From the sequence record EU863409: 64,000 bases of DNA. One strand, written 5' to 3'. The notes beneath the pieces are model-generated. The model had not been told where the DNA came from. It was given only the letters and a program-made list of their open reading frames with translations, and ran no database searches. This stretch comes from Escherichia phage JS10. A program made the position numbers and the translations under genes. Below, one piece after another: positions 15,073 through 60,785 of this stretch. Every line of letters starts with the position of its first letter. Within the stretch, counting starts at the first letter, position 1.

Positions 15073-15127
15073 GATAACCTCCAGTAGTTGATAGGTCTAT
15101 AGTATCATGTCTAATGGAGATGTAAAC
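15073..15127 (-). promoter_or_regulatory. PeSL-like promoter-stem-loop cassette
   Basis: core TTGATAGGTCTATAGTATCA; -35 GTTTAC; 9-bp inverted repeat arms (one mismatch), proximal arm includes GGAGG SD. Confidence 0.55.
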
Positions 15128-15129
15128 AA

Positions 15130-15471
15130 CTAATAGAAACTTTTTTCACCGGCTTGCCCACTAAACCAGGCGGATTGTGTGTTCTCTTTCCGTTGGTGTT
15201 TAATACGAATAAGGTATTCGTTCCTGATGGCGCAGAGTTCATCTCTGAAGTCGCCTGCCAACTTAACCTGCTTACGGTCTAGATTTATTAAGGCTTGGGT
15301 CTTCGCGGCCAAGCGCAACCTCTTGAAGTCTCCTCCTTCACAACCGGTTTTATAAACCTTCTCAGCGAATTTGTGTTTAGATTCATTATCATAGTCTTCA
15401 ATAGACTGTTTCATGGCATTAGAGTATTTCAACTCTGCTTTTACAAGGTCATAACTAAATTGTTCGAACAT
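15130..15471 (-). CDS. hypothetical protein
   Basis: 113-aa ORF. Confidence 0.5.
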   Translation of the reverse strand: MFEQFSYDLVKAELKYSNAMKQSIEDYDNESKHKFAEKVYKTGCEGGDFKRLRLAAKTQALINLDRKQVKLAGDFRDELCAIRNEYLIRIKHQRKENTQSAWFSGQAGEKSFY

Positions 15472-16462: not shown

Positions 16463-16526
16463 TTTATTCTCCTTCACTCAGTAGATTTGATAGGTCTATA
16501 ATAACATGTTTAAAGCAGATGTACAC
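16463..16526 (-). promoter_or_regulatory. PeSL-like cassette (variant, repeat copy 1)
   Basis: GATAGGTCTATAATAACATGTTTAAAGCAGATGTACAC; -35 GTGTAC, -10 TATTAT; palindrome AACATGTT. Confidence 0.5.
16489..16526 (-). repeat. 38-bp direct repeat (copy 1) of PeSL variant core
   Basis: GATAGGTCTATAATAACATGTTTAAAGCAGATGTACAC; second copy at 16801..16838. Confidence 0.7.
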
Positions 16527-16528
16527 AC

Positions 16529-16759
16529 TTATTTTGCAATAATTTCACAGAAGCCATCTTTATAGCGGGCCCATGTTTCACCATTTACTGTATAAAGAGC
16601 AGCTTTACGACCATTAGGCATAACAACTTGTTTACCTTTGTTTTTAGTTACAGCTTCAATAATTTCGTATTCTTCAGCACGATCAGCTTTAAAGGTATCT
16701 TCCAGAGCGATCAAGTTAGTAGTGTAAGAACCGTATTTGTAATTTTTGATAGCGTACAT
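16529..16759 (-). CDS. hypothetical protein (76 aa)
   Basis: Small ORF flanked on both sides by 38-bp direct repeats of the PeSL core. Confidence 0.5.
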   Translation of the reverse strand: MYAIKNYKYGSYTTNLIALEDTFKADRAEEYEIIEAVTKNKGKQVVMPNGRKAALYTVNGETWARYKDGFCEIIAK

Positions 16760-16838
16760 TTTTATATCTCCGTTTGGTTTAAGTTTTCAGCTCTTTAGCT
16801 GATAGGTCTATAATAACATGTTTAAAGCAGATGTACAC
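16760..16838 (-). promoter_or_regulatory. PeSL-like cassette (variant, repeat copy 2)
   Basis: Identical 38-bp core to copy 1 at 16801-16838. Confidence 0.5.
16801..16838 (-). repeat. 38-bp direct repeat (copy 2) of PeSL variant core
   Basis: Identical to 16489..16526; the two copies bracket ORF 16529..16759. Confidence 0.7.
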
Positions 16839-16850
16839 TACTTTTTTGCA

Positions 16851-16880
16851 CTAAACCCAAAAAAGGCCCGAAGGCCTTTT
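16851..16880 (-). terminator. intrinsic terminator
   Basis: GGCC-UUCG-GGCC hairpin with A/U-extended stem and U-rich tail after nucleotidyltransferase gene. Confidence 0.5.
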
Positions 16881-19892: not shown

Positions 19893-19949
19893 ACTGTTCT
19901 CCTCATTAGTTGATAGGTCTATAGTATCACGTTCCTAGAGGATGTAAAC
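19893..19949 (-). promoter_or_regulatory. PeSL-like promoter-stem-loop cassette
   Basis: core TTGATAGGTCTATAGTATCA; -35 GTTTAC (19944-19949); bulged inverted repeat. Confidence 0.55.
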
Positions 19950-19952
19950 ACT

Positions 19953-19984
19953 AAAACGAAAAAAGGTCCCACCGAAGTGGGACC
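19953..19984 (-). terminator. intrinsic terminator
   Basis: GGUCCCAC-UUCG-GUGGGACC hairpin followed by U6CGU4. Confidence 0.65.
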
Positions 19985-24015: not shown

Positions 24016-24072
24016 TTTGTAATCTCCTGTAGTTGATAGGTCTATAGTACCACGTCTACAGGAGATGTAAAC
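24016..24072 (-). promoter_or_regulatory. PeSL-like promoter-stem-loop cassette (upstream of regB)
   Basis: -35 GTTTAC, 17-bp spacer, -10 TACTAT; perfect 9-bp arms CTCCTGTAG / CTACAGGAG (24024-24032 / 24056-24064). Confidence 0.6.
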
Positions 24073-24077
24073 TGCTT

Positions 24078-24356
24078 TTAGTATTTTTCTTCAGGTTGGA
24101 AAACGGAACGACAGGCCCACATGGATGCTTCTTTCAAGCGTTCGATTGCCGTACGAATCTGGGCGAGACGTTCATGAGTGAGGTCGAATTCTTCATCACT
24201 CATTTTATCAACACCCGAGCATGTAAAGGCTTCAACATATTCTTCTTCTAGTGCTTTAAAGATTAAGCCTAATCGAACTTCAGCATCTTTAATGGCATTC
24301 ACTTTACTGATTTTATCGTCGGTATGTGGCTTGTAACCTTTGATATCTTCAATCAT
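24078..24356 (-). CDS. hypothetical protein (vs.3-vs.8 region)
   Basis: 92-aa ORF; ATGA-coupled chain. Confidence 0.45.
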   Translation of the reverse strand: MIEDIKGYKPHTDDKISKVNAIKDAEVRLGLIFKALEEEYVEAFTCSGVDKMSDEEFDLTHERLAQIRTAIERLKEASMWACRSVFQPEEKY

Positions 24357-25544: not shown

Positions 25545-25844
25545 TTAGAAAGAACCAGAACCTTTAATTGTATTCTGGCGACCTTTATTTTCTAATTCAG
25601 AGTGGTCGATTTCGTATGCTTGGGCTACACCAAAGGCCTTTTTAACTTTAGCTAAAGAGCCTTTAGATGTAACAATATTAAAAGTATTACCTTTAGTAAA
25701 ATCAACCAAATCCACTTGTACGCCCTGTTTACCGAGGCTTGCTACAATAGCATCAACATATTCTTGGTCTAAGGTGCCTTGGACACCTATTTGGAATGCT
25801 TTAGGAGCTTTGGCTTCTGTAATAAATTCTTGATAGGTTTTCAT
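25545..25844 (-). CDS. internal-protein-like capsid-targeted protein
   Basis: N-terminus MKTYQEFITE (capsid targeting sequence with I-x-E protease site); 99 aa. Confidence 0.6.
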   Translation of the reverse strand: MKTYQEFITEAKAPKAFQIGVQGTLDQEYVDAIVASLGKQGVQVDLVDFTKGNTFNIVTSKGSLAKVKKAFGVAQAYEIDHSELENKGRQNTIKGSGSF

Positions 25845-25898
25845 ATTATTCCTTAAGTTGATAGAAGTATTCTATCACGGATTTAATTAAGCGTAAAT
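25845..25898 (-). promoter_or_regulatory. promoter with stem-loop over -10 (PeSL-related)
   Basis: -35 TTTACG, 17-bp spacer, -10 TAGAAT inside hairpin GATAGAA-N3-TTCTATC. Confidence 0.4.
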
Positions 25899-26303: not shown

Positions 26304-26359
26304 TTTTAATCTCCTGTAGTTGATAGGTCTATAGTATCATGCCTACAGGAGAAGTAAAC
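26304..26359 (-). promoter_or_regulatory. PeSL-like promoter-stem-loop cassette (upstream of denV)
   Basis: Same architecture and arms as regB cassette; -35 GTTTAC 26354-26359. Confidence 0.6.
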
Positions 26360-26758
26360 TTATTTGTAAGTTTTCATCCAATTCTTGAACAGAGCTGCAA
26401 CGTCTTTCTCTTTAACGTTCAATTTAACGTCCAGCATTTTGCCACCAGCGGCACGTGTCTGACGAATCTTAGCCGTACCGGTTTCGCCATTCCACTCAAC
26501 ATAATACTGCCCGGTGTTCATAGCGATACCATCGCCATAGTCTTCGTTCTTAGAAGTAGTGAATGCCAACTTCATGGTCTTAGAGACACGGGCCTGCATG
26601 CCTGTCTGCAGAGCGTTACGAACGCGAATAACCTGAGGAGTGGCCTGGGTCAGGTTCTCGTTCAGTTCTTCGGTGAACTCTTCTGATTCAAACATTGCCA
26701 AAAGTTCAGCGGGCGCCGGGATTACAGCTTCGGCGATAAATTCATTGTAAGTTTTCAT
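26360..26758 (-). CDS. internal-protein-like capsid-targeted protein (ipII position)
   Basis: N-terminus MKTYNEFIAE; 132 aa; C-terminus ends WMKTYK-stop, a remnant CTS start. Confidence 0.6.
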   Translation of the reverse strand: MKTYNEFIAEAVIPAPAELLAMFESEEFTEELNENLTQATPQVIRVRNALQTGMQARVSKTMKLAFTTSKNEDYGDGIAMNTGQYYVEWNGETGTAKIRQTRAAGGKMLDVKLNVKEKDVAALFKNWMKTYK

Positions 26759-26799
26759 ATAGGTCCTTTAAAGGTAAATGTGTTTAAGTATAGGCTTTA

Positions 26800-27396
26800 T
26801 TAATTACCACGGGCTGCATTAGCAACGGCGTAAGCGTACTGAATATTAGCGTCTTTAAACGTACCTTTAGAGGTATCTAGCTCTGCCTTAAAGCCGGCTT
26901 TAGTCATAACATCGGCAAATTCTTTACGGAAAGCCATTGTATCAAGACCTTTCCATGCTGATTTATGCTTGGCAAATTCAAGACCAGCGAAGTTGACTGC
27001 TTTAGCCAATTTATTATCAATAGTCCATTTACCTGCTTTAGGCACAAATATCGGACCTTTCTGTTTAGAGAATAGTTTTAAATTCCAGCGACGAAGGTCG
27101 CCGTCGGCTTTAACAAAAGCTGCGTCCAAGTTACTAGCAACAACATCTTGAATATGGCCAAATTTAAGCCCATCAGCTTCAATATTTAGGTCGTTACGCC
27201 AGCGAAGTCCTTCCCAGGCGAAAGCTTTAAAGTCGGAAGCTTTTGTAGCTAAATACCGTTCAATAGGAGCTGTTTTAGCGTCAAAGCCGTTTCCTGGGTT
27301 GTCAACGCCGTTTCCTCGGTAGGTCCACTCATCTTTATTAATGCCTTTGACCTTTCCTGCAGTAGCTTCGGTGATAAATTCTTTATACGTTTTCAT
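26800..27396 (-). CDS. internal-protein-like capsid-targeted protein (ipIII position)
   Basis: N-terminus MKTYKEFITE; 198 aa Lys/Ala-rich. Confidence 0.6.
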   Translation of the reverse strand: MKTYKEFITEATAGKVKGINKDEWTYRGNGVDNPGNGFDAKTAPIERYLATKASDFKAFAWEGLRWRNDLNIEADGLKFGHIQDVVASNLDAAFVKADGDLRRWNLKLFSKQKGPIFVPKAGKWTIDNKLAKAVNFAGLEFAKHKSAWKGLDTMAFRKEFADVMTKAGFKAELDTSKGTFKDANIQYAYAVANAARGN

Positions 27397-27475
27397 ACGG
27401 GTCCTTCAAATGTAAATTTAATTAGTCTGTTCAAGTAACTGTAGATATACTATCACAATTCTAGGAGATGTAAAC
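27397..27475 (-). promoter_or_regulatory. PeSL-like cassette (variant) upstream of internal-protein operon
   Basis: -35 GTTTAC (27470-27475), 17-bp spacer, -10 TAGTAT. Confidence 0.45.
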
Positions 27476-27480
27476 TGCTT

Positions 27481-27969
27481 TTATCTATAAGCAGCCCAAG
27501 TACCTGTTTTAAAGGTGGCGATAACACGCTTGGCACGATTCGGGGTTTGCTTGTACCAACGAGACTGCGCCAGGTTAACTGCCGCATCGTCCCAACGTTT
27601 CTGTTGGAGCATACGTAAAGAGTTAGTGAACCCTGCCACACCTGCTTCACCCATTTGGAAGACCATATTAATCAATGCGCAACGACGAACTTCGTCCAAC
27701 ACATCATAAACCGGTTTCAATTTAGGATTGCGCATTATAGCTCTACGAGCATTTTCCACTGAACGATTAAAGAGTTGTTCAGCTTCAGCCATAGTAATAC
27801 GACCATTACAAACTCGACCCATAAGCTTATCAAGTTCAGCGCGAGCAACATCTTTAGATGGGTTCTTGGTAACTAACTGGCCAATACCAATAGTCCAATA
27901 ACCTTCGGTGTCTTTATAAAGGTTTAAATCAAGACCTTCGTCTTGACGTAACATATCAAAAATATCCAT
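27481..27969 (-). CDS. e: endolysin (T4 lysozyme, gene e)
   Basis: 162 aa; catalytic E11/D20-containing N-terminus [21 protein letters not shown]; matches T4 lysozyme. Confidence 0.92.
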
Positions 27970-30176: not shown

Positions 30177-30242
30177 TTTATTCTCCATTTCACTCTGTTG
30201 TTTTGATAGGTCTATAGTATCACACCTATAGACCTTGTATAC
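30177..30242 (-). promoter_or_regulatory. PeSL-like promoter-stem-loop cassette (type with core-derived stem)
   Basis: -35 GTATAC, -10 TACTAT; perfect 10-bp stem AGGTCTATAG / CTATAGACCT (30208-30217 / 30226-30235). Confidence 0.55.
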
Positions 30243-30254
30243 TGTTTTATGCAA

Positions 30255-31214
30255 TTATTTTTCGAAAGGACGAATTAAATGTTGGTTAGCCTTGAAACGA
30301 TTAACATAGTCTTCGCGACCCAGGGTGTTATACATATTAACCACAGCTTGGTAGTTTTCCCAGGCATACTCACGGAACCATCCAGAAGTAATGGAGGTAC
30401 AGACTTTTTCCAGAGCAACATGGAAGCTCACGGATGGAGAGATATTGAACTCATTAGGAACCTGCGAACGCTCTAGAGCAAGTACACATGCTTCTTCATA
30501 TACGCCAGCCAGTTTAATAGCTTCAGGCAAAGCTTCAAACTTCTCACGTGAGGTCATGACTTCAGAACCATCTTTCATATAAAAGGTATACGCTGGGCGT
30601 CCAGCCAATGCCACAGCTTCATGGATAGAGTCATGGTCTAATGTATAAATGGTATCATTAAAGAACGATGATTTGTTTACATCCAATTTAGGATGAGAAT
30701 AGCTCAACGTTTCTTTCTGGCGTTGCAGCATGATTTCTTGGAGCTCTTCATTCAAGGTTACACCTTTATTACGAAGATATTTGATGTGGGACATCGTCTT
30801 CAAAAAGAACGGGTTGTTCTTCAAATAACGATGGCTCATTTTGATAGCCAGACAGATATCAGGCGTGGCCCAATAGAAACCAGTAAGACGATCCTTTTTA
30901 ATATGATTTTCAGCATATTTCAGGAGACGATAACTTGAGGTGAAATCTTCGTCCTGAAGCTCACCGGTAATTTCTCGTACGTTAGTCAGAGCACGGACAA
31001 TATAAGCTTCAAAATAGGTTTCTTTACCATTGTACATACATTTAAAGGCCTGGACATCTGGATTATCCACAGGGACATGGGCGCCGAACATCCGGGCTTT
31101 AAATTGATTCCATGAGCCTTGGTCGGCAATAAAATCCCAATCAGAATTTTCAATATACTTACTTTCAATCAGACCAGCGTGGTGCAGTGCACGAGAACCA
31201 ATAACTAGCATCAT
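30255..31214 (-). CDS. hypothetical protein (319 aa), possible nucleotidyltransferase-like N-terminus
   Basis: N-terminal IGSRAL...SDWDF weakly resembles a G-S...D-x-D fold motif; otherwise unassigned. Confidence 0.5.
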   Translation of the reverse strand: MMLVIGSRALHHAGLIESKYIENSDWDFIADQGSWNQFKARMFGAHVPVDNPDVQAFKCMYNGKETYFEAYIVRALTNVREITGELQDEDFTSSYRLLKYAENHIKKDRLTGFYWATPDICLAIKMSHRYLKNNPFFLKTMSHIKYLRNKGVTLNEELQEIMLQRQKETLSYSHPKLDVNKSSFFNDTIYTLDHDSIHEAVALAGRPAYTFYMKDGSEVMTSREKFEALPEAIKLAGVYEEACVLALERSQVPNEFNISPSVSFHVALEKVCTSITSGWFREYAWENYQAVVNMYNTLGREDYVNRFKANQHLIRPFEK

Positions 31215-35055: not shown

Positions 35056-35128
35056 AGTATTTCCTTCAGTCGGTTGGTATTTTGTAATCCATGAGGACAT
35101 TATACCCTGTCCTCTGAGGGTTGTAAAC
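35056..35128 (-). promoter_or_regulatory. sigma70-like early promoter with stem-loop over -10
   Basis: -35 GTTTAC (35123-35128), 18-bp spacer, -10 TATAAT (35099-35104) inside hairpin GAGGACA-N7-TGTCCTC. Confidence 0.5.
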
Positions 35129-35132
35129 ATTT

Positions 35133-35531
35133 TTATTTCATTTTGGCGAGGCAGATTTCATTGGCTTCCCATTGAGCTTGCTTAATAATAGCTTTGGATA
35201 CAGGAACCTTTTGACCATAAGTTTTTGACGTTGAGAGAACAATATATTTGTTTGCCTCATTATGCCAACCTAGTGATTTTTCACCATGACTACCTTTAAC
35301 CACAGCTGACACCTCAACAGAGCAACCACCATCAGAAATCTTGGTTTCTACAATCCATTCATTTCTCTCGGCAGCTTCAATTTCCGATCTCCTTTTTTCT
35401 TCATACATGGCGGCCCAATCAGTTTTTGCCAAGCTGAAAGTAAGAGCTTTCTCTAATTCTTTGGCAGCTTTTTGTTGTTCAGGCGTTAATGAATTGTACA
35501 ACTCTTGCATTTCTTTATCTTCGATATTCAT
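35133..35531 (-). CDS. hypothetical protein (132 aa)
   Basis: Start at ATG with GTGAAGGAG SD after PeSL-like cassette. Confidence 0.5.
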
Positions 35532-35595
35532 TATGCTCTCCTTCACTCCGTTGTTTTGATAGGTCTATAGTATCATATTCTACGAAAGAGTAAAC
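35532..35595 (-). promoter_or_regulatory. PeSL-like promoter cassette
   Basis: core TTGATAGGTCTATAGTATCA; -35 GTTTAC (35590-35595); hairpin degenerate. Confidence 0.5.
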
Positions 35596-35618
35596 ATCTT
35601 TTTTAAACTTTTAGAAAC

Positions 35619-35646
35619 AAAAAAGGCCCAACCTTTCGGAAGGGCC
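35619..35646 (-). terminator. intrinsic terminator
   Basis: GGCCC...GAAA...GGGCC hairpin plus U6; identical sequence repeated at 36242..36270. Confidence 0.55.
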
Positions 35647-35651
35647 TCGAA

Positions 35652-36206
35652 TCAGTTCTTGTAGAACCGGAATGGGTTCACGTGGAAGGCTAACATAGCT
35701 TTAGGGATTTTACGAGACAAAAGGCTCTTAAGCTTCCAGCCACAGTAAACGCGAAGGTAAAATGTGATTCCGCCGACCTTAAGATAAGGAACTGAAGCAA
35801 ATACACCCCAGGCATCATCATTCCACATCCACAACCAACCATGGTGGGCTTTATCAGGAGAACCTGATTCTACGTCAGGATTACCACGATAATGGAATTC
35901 CGAGCTACAATCACGGCCTAGTTTATGATAAGCAAAGTTATAAGCTTTATTTCGCCATAGCCAAGCTACTCTCTGGAGATAAACACCGCCAGGCATTTTC
36001 CTGATTTTAGCCCAACGTTTAATATGACCTTTATCGCCGTCAATTGGATTATCGTATGTCATCATCCAATCAAAACCATATGGCAATTTACCAGTCTTTT
36101 TATTATGAAAAGGAACCACAAAAGGCGCAAGGATAACGGCTAGAACCATAGAGATAAAATCTAGTGGGACCAACAGAATCCAACTCAAATATTTTAAAAG
36201 TTTCAT
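35652..36206 (-). CDS. membrane-anchored protein (184 aa), late-promoter driven
   Basis: N-terminal signal-anchor helix; TATAAATA 27 nt upstream; flanked by identical terminator hairpins. Confidence 0.5.
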   Translation of the reverse strand: MKLLKYLSWILLVPLDFISMVLAVILAPFVVPFHNKKTGKLPYGFDWMMTYDNPIDGDKGHIKRWAKIRKMPGGVYLQRVAWLWRNKAYNFAYHKLGRDCSSEFHYRGNPDVESGSPDKAHHGWLWMWNDDAWGVFASVPYLKVGGITFYLRVYCGWKLKSLLSRKIPKAMLAFHVNPFRFYKN

Positions 36207-36232
36207 ATTATTTCCTAAGTTAGTTTACTGTA

Positions 36233-36240
36233 TATTTATA
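36233..36240 (-). promoter_or_regulatory. T4-type late promoter (TATAAATA)
   Basis: Exact TATAAATA 27 nt upstream of gene 35652..36206, just downstream of a terminator. Confidence 0.5.
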
Positions 36241-36241
36241 C

Positions 36242-36270
36242 AAAAAAGGCCCAACCTTTCGGAAGGGCCT
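36242..36270 (-). terminator. intrinsic terminator after tRNA/sRNA cluster
   Basis: Same 29-bp hairpin plus U6 as at 35619..35646. Confidence 0.55.
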
Positions 36271-36279
36271 TTAACCTAG

Positions 36280-36439
36280 GGTAGCCTTGTCGGGGTTCCA
36301 CCTGCTAGGCAAGTGTTCTGTGCGCCGTTTCAGCTGTGAGATAAGGGACTTTAAGAGGAACTCATGTACTCCTTAAAGTCGGGTCTTATTCAGGGAACTT
36401 CAGTCCGACGACTTACCGGTAGCGACCCGGTTTCTTGTT
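36280..36439 (-). ncRNA. candidate structured small RNA adjacent to tRNA cluster
   Basis: About 160 nt non-coding, GC-rich inverted repeats (e.g. CTTTAAG...CTTAAAG), between tRNA-Arg and a terminator; no tRNA cloverleaf found; analogous position to T4 species 1/2 RNAs. Confidence 0.25.
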
Positions 36440-36515
36440 TGGTCGAGACAGTAGGGATCGAACCTACGACCTACGGTTTAGAAGACCGTTGCTCTTCCTT
36501 CTGAGCTATGCCTCG
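36440..36515 (-). tRNA. tRNA-Arg (anticodon UCU)
   Basis: 76-nt cloverleaf: anticodon stem ACGGT/ACCGT with loop CTTCTAA, T-arm GTAGG-TTCGATC-CCTAC, encoded CCA; unusual C1-G72 acceptor start. Confidence 0.65.
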
Positions 36516-36519
36516 TATT

Positions 36520-36594
36520 TGGCGGACATGCATGGATTCGAACCATGGACCAATTGATTAACAGTCAACTGCTCTACCACTGAGCTACACATCC
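36520..36594 (-). tRNA. tRNA-Asn (anticodon GUU)
   Basis: 75-nt cloverleaf: D-arm TAGCTCAGTGGTAGAGC, anticodon loop CTGTTAA, T-arm CATGG-TTCGAAT-CCATG, encoded CCA. Confidence 0.75.
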
Positions 36595-36598
36595 AAAT

Positions 36599-36672
36599 TG
36601 GTGGCCCTGGGTGGAATCGAACCACCATCCAGCGATTATGAGTCGCTCGCTTGACCGTCCAGCTACAGGGCC
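36599..36672 (-). tRNA. tRNA-Met/Ile2 (anticodon CAU)
   Basis: 74-nt cloverleaf: acceptor GGCCCTG/CAGGGCC, anticodon stem AGCGA/TCGCT with loop CTCATAA, T-arm GGTGG-TTCGATT-CCACC, encoded CCA. Confidence 0.75.
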
Positions 36673-36677
36673 TTAAT

Positions 36678-36944
36678 TTAAATTACAAATCCAGCAGGAG
36701 CATTATCATCTTTAGCCATGTGCTGAATTGTATGATAAGTCATTTCTTCAGGAGCAACCAGATAAGCCGCAGCATTAACTAGTGGAATTATTTTTGGTTT
36801 AGCGAATGTGCTATCGGCAATTGCCATAAAGGGCTCGCCGTCGGTCTCAACTTCGCCAAATTGACATTCATATGAAATAGAACAACGTTTAGTAGTTGTT
36901 GTCTTGGTTTCTGGGTCATAAAAAGCTAATTTTAATACTAACAT
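36678..36944 (-). CDS. hypothetical protein (88 aa)
   Basis: Start at ATG with GAGG SD; first gene upstream of tRNA cluster. Confidence 0.4.
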   Translation of the reverse strand: MLVLKLAFYDPETKTTTTKRCSISYECQFGEVETDGEPFMAIADSTFAKPKIIPLVNAAAYLVAPEEMTYHTIQHMAKDDNAPAGFVI

Positions 36945-38424: not shown

Positions 38425-38490
38425 TTTATTCTCCAATCACTCATTTGTTTTGATAGGGCTATAGTATCATCACTAAAGCCCGTTGTAAAC
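38425..38490 (-). promoter_or_regulatory. PeSL-like promoter-stem-loop cassette (covarying stem)
   Basis: core GATAGGGCTATAGTATCA with stem GGGCTATAG / CTAAAGCCC; -35 GTTTAC. Confidence 0.55.
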
Positions 38491-38492
38491 AC

Positions 38493-38786
38493 TTATTTTG
38501 TAATTTCTTTGATTTTAGAAACTACTTTATCTTTGGTAAGACCGGAAAAAGTCTTATATTTTGTAAAGTGGATATCATCACCAAGATTAATATAATATTT
38601 CTTTTTAACCGTATTGAATGCTATACTAACAGGTTTACCATTTACTGTAATAGTAATTTGCTGAGCCTTATCAACATCACCTGAGCCAAAGGCTCTTTTA
38701 ATATCGCTACTAATATCGGCCATAGCCGCTTTGTTAATGGAATACAAATCTGTCGATTCTTTGATAAATTCTTGATAAGTTTTCAT
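38493..38786 (-). CDS. internal-protein-like capsid-targeted protein
   Basis: N-terminus MKTYQEFIKE; 97 aa; downstream of canonical PeSL-like cassette. Confidence 0.6.
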   Translation of the reverse strand: MKTYQEFIKESTDLYSINKAAMADISSDIKRAFGSGDVDKAQQITITVNGKPVSIAFNTVKKKYYINLGDDIHFTKYKTFSGLTKDKVVSKIKEITK

Positions 38787-38855
38787 TTTTTTGTTTCCGT
38801 TAGGTTGGGTTTGTTTTGATAGGTCTATAGTATCATGCCTATAGACCTTGTAAAC
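38787..38855 (-). promoter_or_regulatory. PeSL-like promoter-stem-loop cassette
   Basis: -35 GTTTAC (38850-38855), 17-bp spacer, -10 TACTAT; perfect 10-bp stem 38821-38830 / 38839-38848. Confidence 0.6.
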
Positions 38856-38866
38856 ATCTTTTTAAA

Positions 38867-39780
<914 letters not shown>

Positions 39781-42502: not shown

Positions 42503-42510
42503 TATAAATA
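42503..42510 (+). promoter_or_regulatory. T4-type late promoter (TATAAATA) for gene 53 operon
   Basis: Exact TATAAATA 28 nt upstream of gene 53 ATG. Confidence 0.6.
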
Positions 42511-42517
42511 TTAATAT

Positions 42518-42525
42518 TATTTATA
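42518..42525 (-). promoter_or_regulatory. T4-type late promoter (TATAAATA) for genes 4-2-3
   Basis: Exact TATAAATA on minus strand 27 nt upstream of gene 4 ATG; divergent from the gene 53 promoter. Confidence 0.6.
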
Positions 42526-52420: not shown

Positions 52421-52489
52421 GTATCATTATCCTTTAAGCGGGAGACTTTGGAGCATCTATTTATAATAGTGCAAAGGTGTTATTACTAT

Positions 52490-52497
52490 TATAAATA
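52490..52497 (+). promoter_or_regulatory. T4-type late promoter (TATAAATA) for gene 9
   Basis: Exact TATAAATA in the gp8-gp9 intergenic region. Confidence 0.55.
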
Positions 52498-57395: not shown

Positions 57396-59795
57396 ATGAT
57401 TAACAAATTGGAACTTAGTGAGTTACCATTTGTTGACGGCGTACCTGATGCTCCTCAAAAGCGTATCCAATGGATACGCGAGGGTGATTGTATGTCTGCG
57501 GCAAAAACAAAATACGGCAATGAAGGTAATTTGAACGCTGCTGCTTTAGGAGTTCAGAAAAACGTAGAAGCTCTTGATGCCAACGATTTAAAAACTGCTG
57601 ATAAAGTTAATGAGCTTATAGAAAACGTTAATAATATCAATGACGCTTTAGAAATGTCAACAGATATTTCTATCATTCAACAAATAGAGAAAAACCGTGT
57701 TGATATTGTAGACCTTAAAAAAGTCACCGAAGATACAACAGAAAAATTGGACACCTTAACAACCAATTTTGATTTCTTGCGTGAAGATGTTGGTTATCAT
57801 GACCCTTTACAAGACGGCCCATATTTAACTGTACGTGAAAATATTGTTCTTCTTAAAACTGAAATAGGTCATTATGAAAACCAGGATATAAACGGCAATC
57901 CACTGCCTCCTGGCGAAACTAATGAAGCCACTGGTATAAAACGCCGCATCATGGATAATACCACTGAATTGGTGGACCATCGTCTCCGCCTTGATACCCT
58001 TGAAAGAAACTATGAAGATTCTGATGTTGGACAATTGGGTATTAAATTAAATGAAATTCGCGCCGAATTAGGACCACATTCTGATACGGTAGGTAAACAA
58101 CCTGCATATACCCGAATTTCAGTATTAGAAACGGCTGCAGTTAATTTTAATACAGCTATTGACGAAATTAAGGATAATATTGATTTCTCTGGTATGCCTA
58201 TAAAGGACCGAGTAACTACTTTAGAAAGCAAAACCTTTACCTTAGAAAATTCGGTTAATGTTGATTTAAAACCTAGAGTAACTTCTATAGAAACTCAAAT
58301 CGGATCCGAGTCTGCACCGGCATCTATTAATGGTCGTTTAAGCGGACTTCGTACTGATGTAAATGATTTAAAAACCGTAGTAGGTGTTAGTTCAAGTGAT
58401 GGCCTACGTTTCCAAGTTACTGATATCAACCGCCGTTTAGGTAGTGAAGTATCTCCGGCTGCAGGAACCATTAATAAGCGTTTAAATGATGTTATTATTC
58501 AAGCAAACCAATCCACCTCGTCTATCCAGGATATTCAGGTAAAAATTGGTAACAACCAATCCGGTATTAAGGGTACTTTACTTAAACTCACCGATAAGGT
58601 TGACGGGACGAACCCTAACGGAGCTACCGTAGAAGAACGTGGTCTTATTAATGCGGTTACTTCTTTAGAAACCCAGATGCAAGGTAAATTAGGTGATGCA
58701 CCTTCTGATGGTAAACTCTATGCACGTCGAAATGCGGCATGGGCTGAAGTTGTTAATAATTCCACAGAAATAGAAACCGTTAAAGCCGATTTAGTTGTTA
58801 CCGACGGTAAAGTGACCGCGTTAACTTCCAGAGTAGATGGTAATGATACCTCAATTTCTTCTCTTGATACTCGTACCGGTGCATTAAACACTTCGGTTGG
58901 CGAGATTAAAGCTGATATAGTTTCTATAAAGGCTAAAGATGATGAACAGGATGGTCGTTTAACAGCACTTGAATCTAGTGATGTGACCATTAACGGTAAA
59001 ATTGCTGCTCTTGAAACTAAGACAGATACCACTGATGATGATGTCACAGCACTGGCTTTAGACGTTTCTTCTTTAGAGAACCAATTGACTCCTATAAAAG
59101 CCGATATTACCAAAAACAAAGGTGATATTGTTGCCTTAACTGGTCGAGTGGCTTCTACTGAAGGCGAAATTAATGCAATTAAAGTTGATACAGCCAAAAT
59201 TGCTCCTTTAACAACTAGAGTTACTACGGCAGAAGGTAAAATCACTACTTTAGAAACAGGGCTTGCCGCTGTTAAAGTCGAATCCGATAAGGTAGCAGGT
59301 ATTAATACCCGCCTTAGCACTGCAGAAGGTGACATCGGAACACTTAAAACAGGGTTGGCTGAAGTTAAGGGTGAATCCGATAAAGTAGCAGCTATAGATA
59401 CCCGTTTAGGTGTTGTTGAAGTTGAATCAGGTAAAGTAGCAGGAATCGATGCTCGTTTGGGTGATGTTGAAGGCGAAGTTAGTACTCTTGAAACGGGTTT
59501 AGCTGCCGTTAAAGTCGAATCCGATAAGGTAGCAGGTATTAATACCCGTTTAGGTACGGTCGAAGGTAAAGTTGGTACTCTTGAAACAGGTTTGGCTGCT
59601 GTTAAAGTTGAATCTGATAAAGTTGCTGACTTAGGAACCCGTTTAACCGCCGCCGAAGGTAAAATTACGGCCTTAGAAACAGAATTATCTAAACGTCCAC
59701 CGGTGGCTCCTGCCGCAGACGGACTTCCGTATGTTCTGGTTGATAACGCATGGGTATTATTGTCTGATTTTGTGACTTTAAACTCAGCGCCATAA
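57396..59795 (+). CDS. wac: fibritin (whisker antigen control, wac), expanded
   Basis: 799-aa coiled-coil protein with C-terminal foldon-like YVLVDNAWVLLSDF; internal tandem repeats; followed by terminator. Confidence 0.8.
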   Translation: MINKLELSELPFVDGVPDAPQKRIQWIREGDCMSAAKTKYGNEGNLNAAALGVQKNVEALDANDLKTADKVNELIENVNNINDALEMSTDISIIQQIEKNRVDIVDLKKVTEDTTEKLDTLTTNFDFLREDVGYHDPLQDGPYLTVRENIVLLKTEIGHYENQDINGNPLPPGETNEATGIKRRIMDNTTELVDHRLRLDTLERNYEDSDVGQLGIKLNEIRAELGPHSDTVGKQPAYTRISVLETAAVNFNTAIDEIKDNIDFSGMPIKDRVTTLESKTFTLENSVNVDLKPRVTSIETQIGSESAPASINGRLSGLRTDVNDLKTVVGVSSSDGLRFQVTDINRRLGSEVSPAAGTINKRLNDVIIQANQSTSSIQDIQVKIGNNQSGIKGTLLKLTDKVDGTNPNGATVEERGLINAVTSLETQMQGKLGDAPSDGKLYARRNAAWAEVVNNSTEIETVKADLVVTDGKVTALTSRVDGNDTSISSLDTRTGALNTSVGEIKADIVSIKAKDDEQDGRLTALESSDVTINGKIAALETKTDTTDDDVTALALDVSSLENQLTPIKADITKNKGDIVALTGRVASTEGEINAIKVDTAKIAPLTTRVTTAEGKITTLETGLAAVKVESDKVAGINTRLSTAEGDIGTLKTGLAEVKGESDKVAAIDTRLGVVEVESGKVAGIDARLGDVEGEVSTLETGLAAVKVESDKVAGINTRLGTVEGKVGTLETGLAAVKVESDKVADLGTRLTAAEGKITALETELSKRPPVAPAADGLPYVLVDNAWVLLSDFVTLNSAP
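59223..59675 (+). repeat. tandem coiled-coil repeat region inside wac
   Basis: At least three copies of an approx 30-aa unit TLETGLAAVKVESDKVAGINTRL; two copies share a long identical nucleotide block. Confidence 0.6.
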
Positions 59796-59796
59796 T

Positions 59797-59818
59797 AAAA
59801 GGGCTTCGGCCCTTTTTT
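59797..59818 (+). terminator. intrinsic terminator after wac
   Basis: AAAAGGGC-TTCG-GCCC followed by T6. Confidence 0.7.
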
Positions 59819-59820
59819 GC

Positions 59821-59828
59821 TATAAATA
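59821..59828 (+). promoter_or_regulatory. T4-type late promoter (TATAAATA) for gene 13
   Basis: Exact TATAAATA directly after the wac terminator. Confidence 0.6.
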
Positions 59829-59849
59829 CGGTTATTAGAGGAATAAAAC

Positions 59850-60785
59850 ATGGCAAGTGAATCATATAACCCTAAGCAACTCAAGGACGCTATTCTGCGC
59901 CGCCTGGGTGCACCGATTACAAATATTGAAGTAACTACTGACCAAGTATATGATTGCATCCAGCGCGCCCTGGAGCTCTACGGCGAATACCATTATAACG
60001 GGTATAACAAAGGTTATCAGGCTTTTTATATTGGCCATGACGATGAAGAAAAATTCCGTAATGGCGTATTCGACCTTAAAGGACGTAATATATTTGCAGT
60101 AACACAAATTTTGAGAACTAACGTTGGCTCTTTAACATCTATGGACGGGCAAGCAACTTATCCATGGTTTACAGATTTTGTACTAGGTTTGGCAGGTATT
60201 AATGGTGGTCTTGGGTCTTCATGTAATAGTTTTGGGCCTAATGCCTTCGGCGCCGACCTTGGCTATTTTACACAATTAATGCAATATCGTTCTATGATGC
60301 AGGACCTTTTGGTTCCGCTGCCTGATTATTGGTATAATGATGCCACTGAACAATTGAAGGTAATGGGCAACTTTGTTAAAGGCGACTTTATTGTAATTGA
60401 AGTTTATACCCGTTCATTTAATGGCGTTGATTCCATGGTTGGGAATACAGCAGGATATGGATATGCTTCTGGTGGCTGTGACGAAAATGAATGGAGCCCT
60501 GGGGCTATTTGGGACAATCCTGCACGTCGAATTTCAGGAATGAGAGCTGGCGAGGACCTTGGACTACAAGATGGCGCGTATAATAACCGTTGGGTCAAAG
60601 ATTACGCTACGGCATTAGTTAAAGAGGTCAATGGTAATATTTTAGCCAAACACCAAGGTATGCAATTAGCCGGCGGAACCACTGTAGATGGCATTCGATT
60701 GATTGAAGAAGCTCGTTTAGAAAAAGAACGTCTTCGCGAAGAATTAGATTTGCTCGACCCACCAACACCTATTTTAATTGGATAA
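59850..60785 (+). CDS. 13: neck protein gp13
   Basis: 311 aa resembling T4 gp13; TATAAATA upstream. Confidence 0.85.

Follow-up and report, generated by a model that had tools for sequence, protein, structure and literature searches.

The stretch of DNA analysed here, called the window throughout, comprises 64,000 nt of Escherichia phage JS10 (EU863409), a JS98-like T4-type coliphage of the genus Dhakavirus. Within it, an open reading frame (ORF) of 184 codons, encoding a protein of the Pfam family DUF7338, is enclosed by two copies of the same hairpin. All genes of this hairpin-bounded region lie on the minus strand. The order of transcription runs from tRNA-Met, tRNA-Asn and tRNA-Arg to a homologue of the T4 stable RNA gene rnaD with its trailer, hairpin 1, the exact T4-type late promoter motif TATAAATA and the 184-residue ORF, followed by hairpin 2, an early promoter and the next gene (Table 1). 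An initial annotation, made from the letters of the sequence, had described a gene with an N-terminal membrane anchor, a late promoter ahead of it and the same hairpin with U-run on both sides, one copy closing the tRNA/stable-RNA cluster; all of these features are present, the upstream copy standing behind the three tRNA genes and the rnaD homologue. We consider it likely that the region constitutes a self-contained, horizontally mobile late-gene cassette, placed behind a pre-existing copy of its own hairpin.

The bracketing sequence is an exact direct repeat with a full extent of 31 nt (ACAAAAAAGGCCCAACCTTTCGGAAGGGCCT). Its two matches in 64 kb compare with none in 100 shuffles, and no third copy was found in the window with up to 3 mismatches or a degenerate pattern. 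Folded as the minus strand, each copy forms a GC hairpin in which an outer stem of 7-8 bp is joined through a 2x2 U.U internal loop to a 2-bp stem capped by GAAA; UUUUUU follows directly, and the energies are -17.4 and -17.8 kcal/mol (z about -3 versus shuffles). A consensus terminator scan missed both hairpins, solely owing to the internal loop. Across 11 distinct copies of the hairpin from 5 genera, 98.9% of pair cells hold a standard pair, compared to 20-74% in controls with the partner slid by 1-3 columns. One G:C pair is exchanged for C:G (5 versus 6 copies) and another G:C becomes G:U. This covariation is modest, with probably one compensatory event, and is consistent with a selected structure. 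The Rfam model BjrC68 scored 21.6-21.7 bits for both hairpins against a gathering score of 39, and these sub-threshold chance matches were dismissed; nothing but tRNAs passes in an Rfam scan of the region.

Both hairpins are predicted to terminate transcription. The downstream copy starts 5 nt past the stop codon of the ORF and is followed by a sigma-70-type early promoter. It was found behind the DUF7338 stop codon in JS98, MN04, UP19, WG01, GRNsp7 and LF82-5 as well, but not in DK-13 or VR5-type contigs. The stem is trailed by at least 5 U in each of the 11 distinct copies, which have a stop codon or an RNA gene upstream and a promoter downstream, the signature of intrinsic terminators. These observations speak against the notion, which we regard as improbable, that the main role of the hairpins is to stabilise RNA 3' ends or signal processing, or to provide DNA recombination or cruciform sites, rather than to terminate transcription. 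It would fit the position of the upstream copy behind stable-RNA genes, given that T4 tRNA, rnaC and rnaD precursors are processed, and the fact that the hairpin marks recombination junctions in the genomes described below. The roles of terminator, stabiliser and recombination site are not mutually exclusive.

Comparison to relatives revealed three matched pairs of empty and filled sites, two of which differ by exactly one hairpin-to-hairpin unit; in all, the cassette was seen at two different loci and in at least four genera. The empty Dhakavirus site is that of dhaeg, where the tRNAs, rnaD and the trailer lead into one hairpin, a sequence beginning GTATAAATAGATAAG and orf135. The filled site of JS98, MN04 and UP19 contains a hairpin, a sequence beginning GTATAAATATACAG, the DUF7338 gene, a second hairpin, the GTATAAATAGATAAG sequence and orf135. 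The JS98 arrangement equals that of dhaeg plus exactly one unit, with a late promoter at both JS98 hairpins. The Mosigvirus gene (75% amino-acid identity) is located elsewhere, directly behind the antiholin gene rI and between two hairpins. The upstream hairpin of LF82-5 is followed by GTATAAATA and the downstream one by an early promoter, with a hairpin-to-hairpin spacing of 623 nt in both LF82-5 and the window. At the matching empty site of Bas46, a single hairpin separates the rI stop codon from the early promoter that LF82-5 also has. When the LF82-5 sequence was used as a query, 23 records with at least 80% coverage displayed the cassette-bearing arrangement, and approximately 20 of the 40 matches listed had 70% coverage, in two pieces spanning 1376-1382 nt versus 2001. 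A functional link of DUF7338 to rI was considered and rejected, as the empty Mosigvirus site already has the hairpin.

The third pair lies in Tequatrovirus, where T4 represents the empty state. T4 carries a single copy of the hairpin behind rnaC (AGCCCCGACCGAAAGGTTGGGGCTTTTT), from which the upstream copy in the window differs by one compensated base pair and the internal loop. It is followed by GGTATCTAAG and a spacer of ~170 nt up to the early promoter of e.8; neither a late promoter nor a DUF7338 gene was found behind the T4 rnaC hairpin. The filled GRNsp7 site reads hairpin, TATAAATA, an internal-protein-like gene, a second terminator, the DUF7338 gene, a hairpin and the e.8 early promoter. 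The 47-nt trailer and the upstream hairpin of the window are collinear with the T4 sequence behind rnaC. Hence, the upstream copy is the ancestral one, which closes the tRNA/stable-RNA cluster, and, as this hairpin is single in T4, the duplication can be read as the footprint of an insertion at that hairpin. The proposal of a cassette-like insertion is thus strongly supported by the genomes compared.

That the two hairpins are merely ordinary terminators of a common type, each maintained independently around a stable resident gene with no mobility, is highly improbable, and largely refuted by the empty/filled pairs: at each of two unrelated loci, exactly one repeat unit separates the genomes of the two kinds. 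Related hairpins do serve as single-copy terminators elsewhere, behind rnaC in T4 and behind rI in Bas46, and GC hairpins with tetraloops are common among T4 terminators (PMC5931544). However, the window copies are 100% identical over 31 nt, whereas the enclosed gene has a synonymous divergence (dS) of 0.5-0.7 relative to WG01 and GRNsp7. Furthermore, the gene is patchily distributed over Dhakavirus, Tequatrovirus, Gaprivervirus and Mosigvirus with 75-100% amino-acid identity.

Additional arrangements were observed among the relatives. The order in WG01 is an internal-protein-like gene followed by the DUF7338 gene, and DK-13 (Gaprivervirus) and the VR5-type contigs present still other variants. 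The DUF7338 stop codon of VR5-type genomes abuts the last orf135 codons and the orf135 terminator (contig L037, ~9391, minus strand), a layout that reads as a deletion variant with the second hairpin and late promoter lost.

The late promoter TATAAATA (36240..36233, minus strand) is located 2 nt past the U-run of hairpin 1 and 26 nt before the ATG at 36206. The total of 8 copies in the window is not above the 7.4 expected by chance. Their placement is far from random: 6 of the 8 lie 21-27 nt upstream of a same-strand ATG opening an ORF of at least 149 codons, including the lysozyme gene e. The motif is identical and in the same position in JS98, UP19, MN04 and LF82-5, and is kept ahead of different cargo in WG01, dhaeg and GRNsp7. 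The leader that separates it from the ATG likewise precedes another cargo gene, ORF139, in WG01. One-base variants of the promoter occur in DK-13 (TATAAATC), Pet-CM3-4 and STP4-a, while relaxed versions are found ahead of homologues in Gelderlandvirus (AATAAATA) and, following a terminator, in Karamvirus (CATAAATA). Position -13 of the late promoter is poorly conserved in the published consensus (PMC1524935). Elsewhere in the window, at 59790-59850 (plus strand), a terminator hairpin (AAAAGGGCTTCGGCCCTTTTTT) is separated by a 2-nt gap from TATAAATA (junction at 59821), which stands 21 nt ahead of a 311-residue ORF, so that the cassette is not the only place where a late promoter follows a terminator. 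Divergent pairs of exact TATAAATA copies, 15-32 nt apart, were seen at 42503-42525 and 52458-52497, with 3 of the 4 copies correctly spaced to ORF starts, which suggests back-to-back late promoters.

Our model of the cassette combines these features. A cassette with one hairpin copy would recombine with a resident hairpin terminator, leaving the cargo flanked by hairpins in direct repeat at a spacing of 623 nt. The cargo could be removed again when these repeats recombine with each other, by the mechanism proposed for PeSL cassettes (see below) and possibly via excised circles. Recombination at the hairpin is the presumed mechanism of insertion, and simple homologous recombination there is plausible. 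During infection, the upstream hairpin would halt early and middle transcripts coming from the tRNA cluster. After the onset of replication, RNA polymerase with gp55, gp33 and gp45 would start a few nt downstream of TATAAATA, giving a monocistronic mRNA of ~0.6 kb that stops at the downstream hairpin. The next gene would restart from its own sigma-70-type early promoter. Transcription of the cassette gene is thus expected to be late only, and its product to be a dispensable but selectively maintained single-pass inner-membrane protein with a cytoplasmic N-terminus and a periplasmic alpha/beta domain.

Several observations weigh against this model. With regard to mobility, the shared homology at the hairpin (~23-38 nt) is far below the ~100 bp of PeSLs, and only two copies of the hairpin exist in the 64-kb window, compared to dozens for PeSLs. 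In GRNsp7 the replaced segment extends as far as the start codon of e.8, and recombination within the flanking genes would account for the Tequatrovirus case equally well. With regard to timing, the DUF7338 genes of WG01 and GRNsp7 have no TATAAATA of their own and are second genes of a late unit behind another terminator. RB43, Miro and phiAS5 have a terminator directly before the ATG and no recognisable late promoter, and in Felixounavirus and Roomu-2 the gene lies amid tRNA genes with neither terminator nor late promoter. Late timing is therefore not family-wide. T4-type intrinsic terminators are often leaky, so that early read-through from the tRNA unit is possible.

The homologues without a late promoter, directly behind a terminator or inside tRNA arrays, imply read-through or co-transcription. 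Taken further, expression in the window might also come mainly from read-through of the early/middle tRNA unit, with TATAAATA incidental or minor and the protein made throughout infection; the chance-level total of TATAAATA in the window would agree with this. We consider it unlikely, since the positioning of 6 of the 8 motifs before ORF starts, the conserved distance in JS98, MN04, UP19 and LF82-5 (with TATAAATC in DK-13), the retention of the motif when the cargo changes, and the predicted stable hairpin with U6 directly upstream all argue against it.

The initial annotation had proposed a profile search of the encoded protein. This search identified a family, although one of unknown function: the protein is a full-length member of DUF7338 (PF24027; E=4.6e-63, 212.6 bits versus a cut-off of 27), with residues 1-183 aligned to profile positions 1-179 of 180. 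The PHROGs match, phrog_2143, is of unknown function as well. Searches with tblastn returned 591 matching phage records, distributed over Tevenvirinae, Pseudotevenvirus, Slopekvirus, Felixounavirus, and Pseudomonas and Aeromonas phages. A profile search of 1.84 billion representatives yielded 858 clusters (50% identity) of proteins that essentially all stand alone, at a length of 170-200 residues, and no informative domain fusions. The invariant residues are T50, D52, W82, W84, R85, N86, Y89, R152, W157 and K158. The ratio of non-synonymous to synonymous substitution rates (dN/dS) versus WG01, GRNsp7 and DK-13 is 0.016-0.03, indicating strong purifying selection. The gene is nevertheless dispensable, because empty genomes exist. 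No mention of DUF7338 was found in the literature searched, and the main text of the PhageMaP study (on Bas63, a Felixounavirus) contains category-level statements only, with no gene-level values.

The N-terminus is strongly hydrophobic (19-residue Kyte-Doolittle window maximum of 2.45). The AlphaFold2 model (mean predicted local distance difference test score, pLDDT, of 95.8) consists of one N-terminal transmembrane helix (~residues 6-33) and a C-terminal alpha/beta domain of ~150 residues. Among 30 homologues, the charge on the N side of the helix is ~+2.7, and the C side holds +1.7 basic residues plus about one acidic residue per sequence. The protein is probably an N-in/C-out signal anchor that exposes the alpha/beta domain to the periplasm. 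The predicted fold has no match among solved structures; repeated weak matches to hot-dog folds (FabZ, Rv0098) fell below any meaningful threshold and were not used.

With this predicted architecture, a single transmembrane helix and a large periplasmic domain much like T4 gpt, and a late promoter ahead of the gene, DUF7338 could be a holin or another lysis-timing protein, making the cassette a mobile lysis module. Some GenBank records label homologues as holins, and the neighbourhoods contain rI in Mosigvirus and an endolysin gene at ~0.7 kb in STP4-a. The phiAS5 (Aeromonas phage) gene is located directly behind a tail-fibre gene, abuts a T4-lysozyme-family gene and is near asiA (locus L012, 2992-4345), which presumably corresponds to the place of the holin gene t on the T4 map. 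However, no homology of DUF7338 to Phage_holin_T was found in either sequence or structure. The holin labels are unsupported, and we rate a lysis-timing role as decidedly unlikely. An accessory, envelope-directed late function can be put forward with low confidence, e.g. one that keeps progeny from adsorbing to debris or to infected cells, or one that modulates lysis; the envelope-acting or exclusion role raised in the initial annotation amounts to a guess. In other genomes, DUF7338 is the last gene of a Chitinivorax prophage, behind tail-fibre and tail-fibre-assembly genes, and on one metagenomic contig it forms a solitary opposite-strand island.

DUF7338 genes also occur in or behind tRNA arrays, in Felixounavirus NS7 and Pseudomonas phage Roomu-2 (both between tRNA genes), Karamvirus Pet-CM3-4 and Gelderlandvirus STP4-a, and RB43/Miro have the gene ~0.9 kb from their sole tRNA. 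The loci concerned are L006 (3001-3558), L013 (3004-3570), L010 (3001-3558), L004 (2995-3555), L005 and L009. A functional link to tRNA genes was rejected: ~8 lineages have the gene inside or next to a tRNA array, ~9 other contexts have no tRNA nearby, and in T-even phages the proximity to tRNAs follows from the hairpin's place as terminator of the tRNA unit.

DUF7338 is not the only cargo of the hairpin plus TATAAATA module. A scan of IMG/VR found 12 sites, with the next gene encoding DUF7338 in 5 and a protein with the start motif MK[TS]Y..FL in 7. On several T4-like contigs the MK[TS]Y..FL gene itself lies between two hairpins, followed by the T4-type right flank GGTATCTAGGCC. JS98 orf135, WG01 ORF139 and the IMG/VR proteins begin MK[TS]Y.(E/Q)FL, resembling the T4 IPI start MKTFKEF, and one such N-terminus has a weak PHROGs match to 'internal virion protein'. 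These cargo proteins are presumably internal head proteins, the T4 ip genes being late-expressed and highly polymorphic. The start motif is shared with the T4 ip genes by the alternative cargo, whereas DUF7338 lacks an N-terminal targeting motif and has a transmembrane helix, and is thus not an internal head protein. Five ORFs in the window start with MKTY(Q/N)EF.. (25808-25859, 26722-26773, 27360-27411, 38750-38801 and 39040-39091); this motif is typical of T4 internal head proteins, where it serves capsid targeting, and its recurrence suggests a large internal-protein-like set in the phage.

The closest published systems are modules of a terminator stem-loop and a promoter that flank non-essential genes in hyperplastic regions, termed PeSLs or, with middle promoters, PmSLs (Arbiol et al. 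2010, PMC2839356; Comeau et al. 2014, PMC4122927). PeSLs mediate insertion, deletion and replacement, with one element at an empty site and two at a filled site (PMC2839356; PMC4122927). Our cassette likewise consists of terminator stem-loop and promoter bracketing a single non-essential gene in a hyperplastic region, and has one element when empty and two when filled (dhaeg versus JS98, Bas46 versus LF82-5, T4 versus GRNsp7). The downstream element of the window, i.e. hairpin, GTTTAC-N17-TACTAT and leader, is of the ordinary PeSL type. In contrast, the upstream element has the late TATAAATA and no -35/-10 pair (both elements in JS98 likewise carry a late promoter), so that the bracketing pair in the window combines one late-type and one early-type element. 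Because the upstream element has no early promoter, it falls outside PeSL membership, although the mechanism appears to be the same. A further difference is that the cargo is a conserved, widespread family and not an ORFan. On this layout, we interpret the cassette as a late-promoter counterpart of the published PeSL shuffling cassettes. No late-promoter version was found in PMC2839356 or PMC4122927, and a literature search for 'PlSL' found none.

The cassette can also be compared to the morons of lambdoid phages (the Hendrix/Juhala concept, as summarised in PMC2839356). Like these, it places one accessory gene, transcriptionally autonomous through a promoter and terminator of its own, between resident genes. 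Morons are typically expressed from the prophage and thought to arise by illegitimate recombination without conserved flanks, whereas the phage here is virulent, the promoter late-lytic and the flanks conserved repeats. Nolan et al. (2006, PMC1524935) found late promoters nowhere but 5' of genes orthologous to T4 late genes, and a non-T4 accessory gene moving together with a late promoter of its own is thus an exception worth recording.

A broader proposal, which we put forward tentatively and with some reservation, is that T-even phages possess a class of mobile late-gene cassettes for which a conserved terminator hairpin serves as a portable site of attachment. Such cassettes would move from locus to locus (the rnaC and rI terminators) and from genus to genus, would require no more than about 25-40 nt of homology in the hairpin, and would deliver either injected internal-protein-like genes or DUF7338. 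The short homology at the hairpin hints at a structure-assisted mechanism, such as template switching or cruciform cleavage, over plain homologous recombination. With the cassette, the modular shuffling documented for early and middle genes of T4-type genomes would come to include late ones. A directly testable system is offered by the clean empty and filled sites, with a 623-bp unit and defined junctions, and the hairpin/TATAAATA/hairpin layout lends itself naturally to insulated, late-expressed payloads in T-even therapeutic phages. DUF7338 is itself a high-value target for functional study: the family is large and spread across phages, is under strong purifying selection and has a confidently predicted fold that matches no solved structure. 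Under the broader proposal, it could be a previously unrecognised late envelope effector, structurally novel and facing the periplasm.

Table 1 Features of the cassette region and members of the GTTTAC-N17 promoter/leader family in the window
Feature	Position	Strand	Basis
tRNA-Met(CAT), tRNA-Asn(GTT), tRNA-Arg(TCT); start of upstream unit	36440..36672	-	ARAGORN; Rfam tRNA above gathering score
Homologue of T4 rnaD (species 2 stable RNA)	36318..36439	-	Alignment with T4, WG01, MN04, JS98; T4 annotation
Conserved trailer, AACACTTGCC..GGTGGAACCCCGACAAGG.., between stable RNA and hairpin in T4 and all relatives	36271..36317	-	Alignment; T4 sequence
Upstream repeat copy: hairpin 36269..36248, U-run 36247..36242; predicted intrinsic terminator of tRNA/stable-RNA unit	36240..36270	-	
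T4-type late promoter core, exact TATAAATA	36233..36240	-	Distance to ATG (26 nt upstream)
5' leader with Shine-Dalgarno AGGA (36216..36213)	36207..36232	-	
184-residue ORF, DUF7338 / phrog_2143	35652..36206	-	Pfam, PHROGs, AlphaFold2, hydropathy, dN/dS
Downstream repeat copy: hairpin 35646..35625, U-run 35624..35619; predicted late-transcript terminator	35617..35647	-	
Early-promoter cassette: A-rich upstream element, -35 GTTTAC 35595..35590, 17-nt spacer, -10 TACTAT 35572..35567, leader AGACCTATCAAAACAAC	35547..35616	-	
Next gene, homologue of JS98 gp133 / RB32 ORF130c, phrog_8232	35133..35531	-	
GTTTAC-N17-TA(C/T)(T/A)AT plus AGACCTATCAA.. family, ahead of minus-strand genes	15075-15148, 16474-16547, 16786-16859, 19897-19970		
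Same promoter/leader family (GTTTAC-N17), continued	24020-24093, 26307-26380, 27446-27483, 30197-30259, 35543-35616, 38444-38506, 38810-38872		

The early promoter behind hairpin 2 belongs to a family of promoter/leader cassettes with 7-9 copies in the window (families D2, D3, D5 and D7; Table 1), which represents the PeSL-like architecture of the hyperplastic region. It is of the type found ahead of e.8 in WG01, GRNsp7 and JS98. Positions 35100-36700 are 98.4% identical to JS98, one indel aside, and the overall arrangement resembles JS98 in its left part and WG01 in its right part. The window lacks two JS98 genes, e.8 and the internal-protein-like orf135. Loss of e.8 occurred through a junction inside the Shine-Dalgarno region, GAAGGAGAG|CATAATG (35531-35560, compared with locus L001, 2931-2989 and 3252-3300), so that the e.8-type promoter and leader are now fused to the gp133 homologue. 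The run of hairpin, early promoter and gp133 homologue was found in one piece in 0 of 50,697 phage records searched. The placement of the gene inside an early region, as first annotated, is a simplification: the region near the cassette also holds further late-promoter genes.

Upstream of the cassette, the rnaC homologue (species 1 RNA) has been removed from the window and JS98 by a clean 146-nt deletion that left the trailer and hairpin intact; the alignment (window 36271-36439, locus L015 2409-2672) shows the rnaC homologue kept in T4, WG01 and MN04. Rfam contains no family for rnaC or rnaD. At 59139-59645, tandem coding repeats of ~93 and ~144 nt with 60-77% identity were observed, with related 30-mers at 60378 and 62261, possibly encoding a repetitive-domain late protein.

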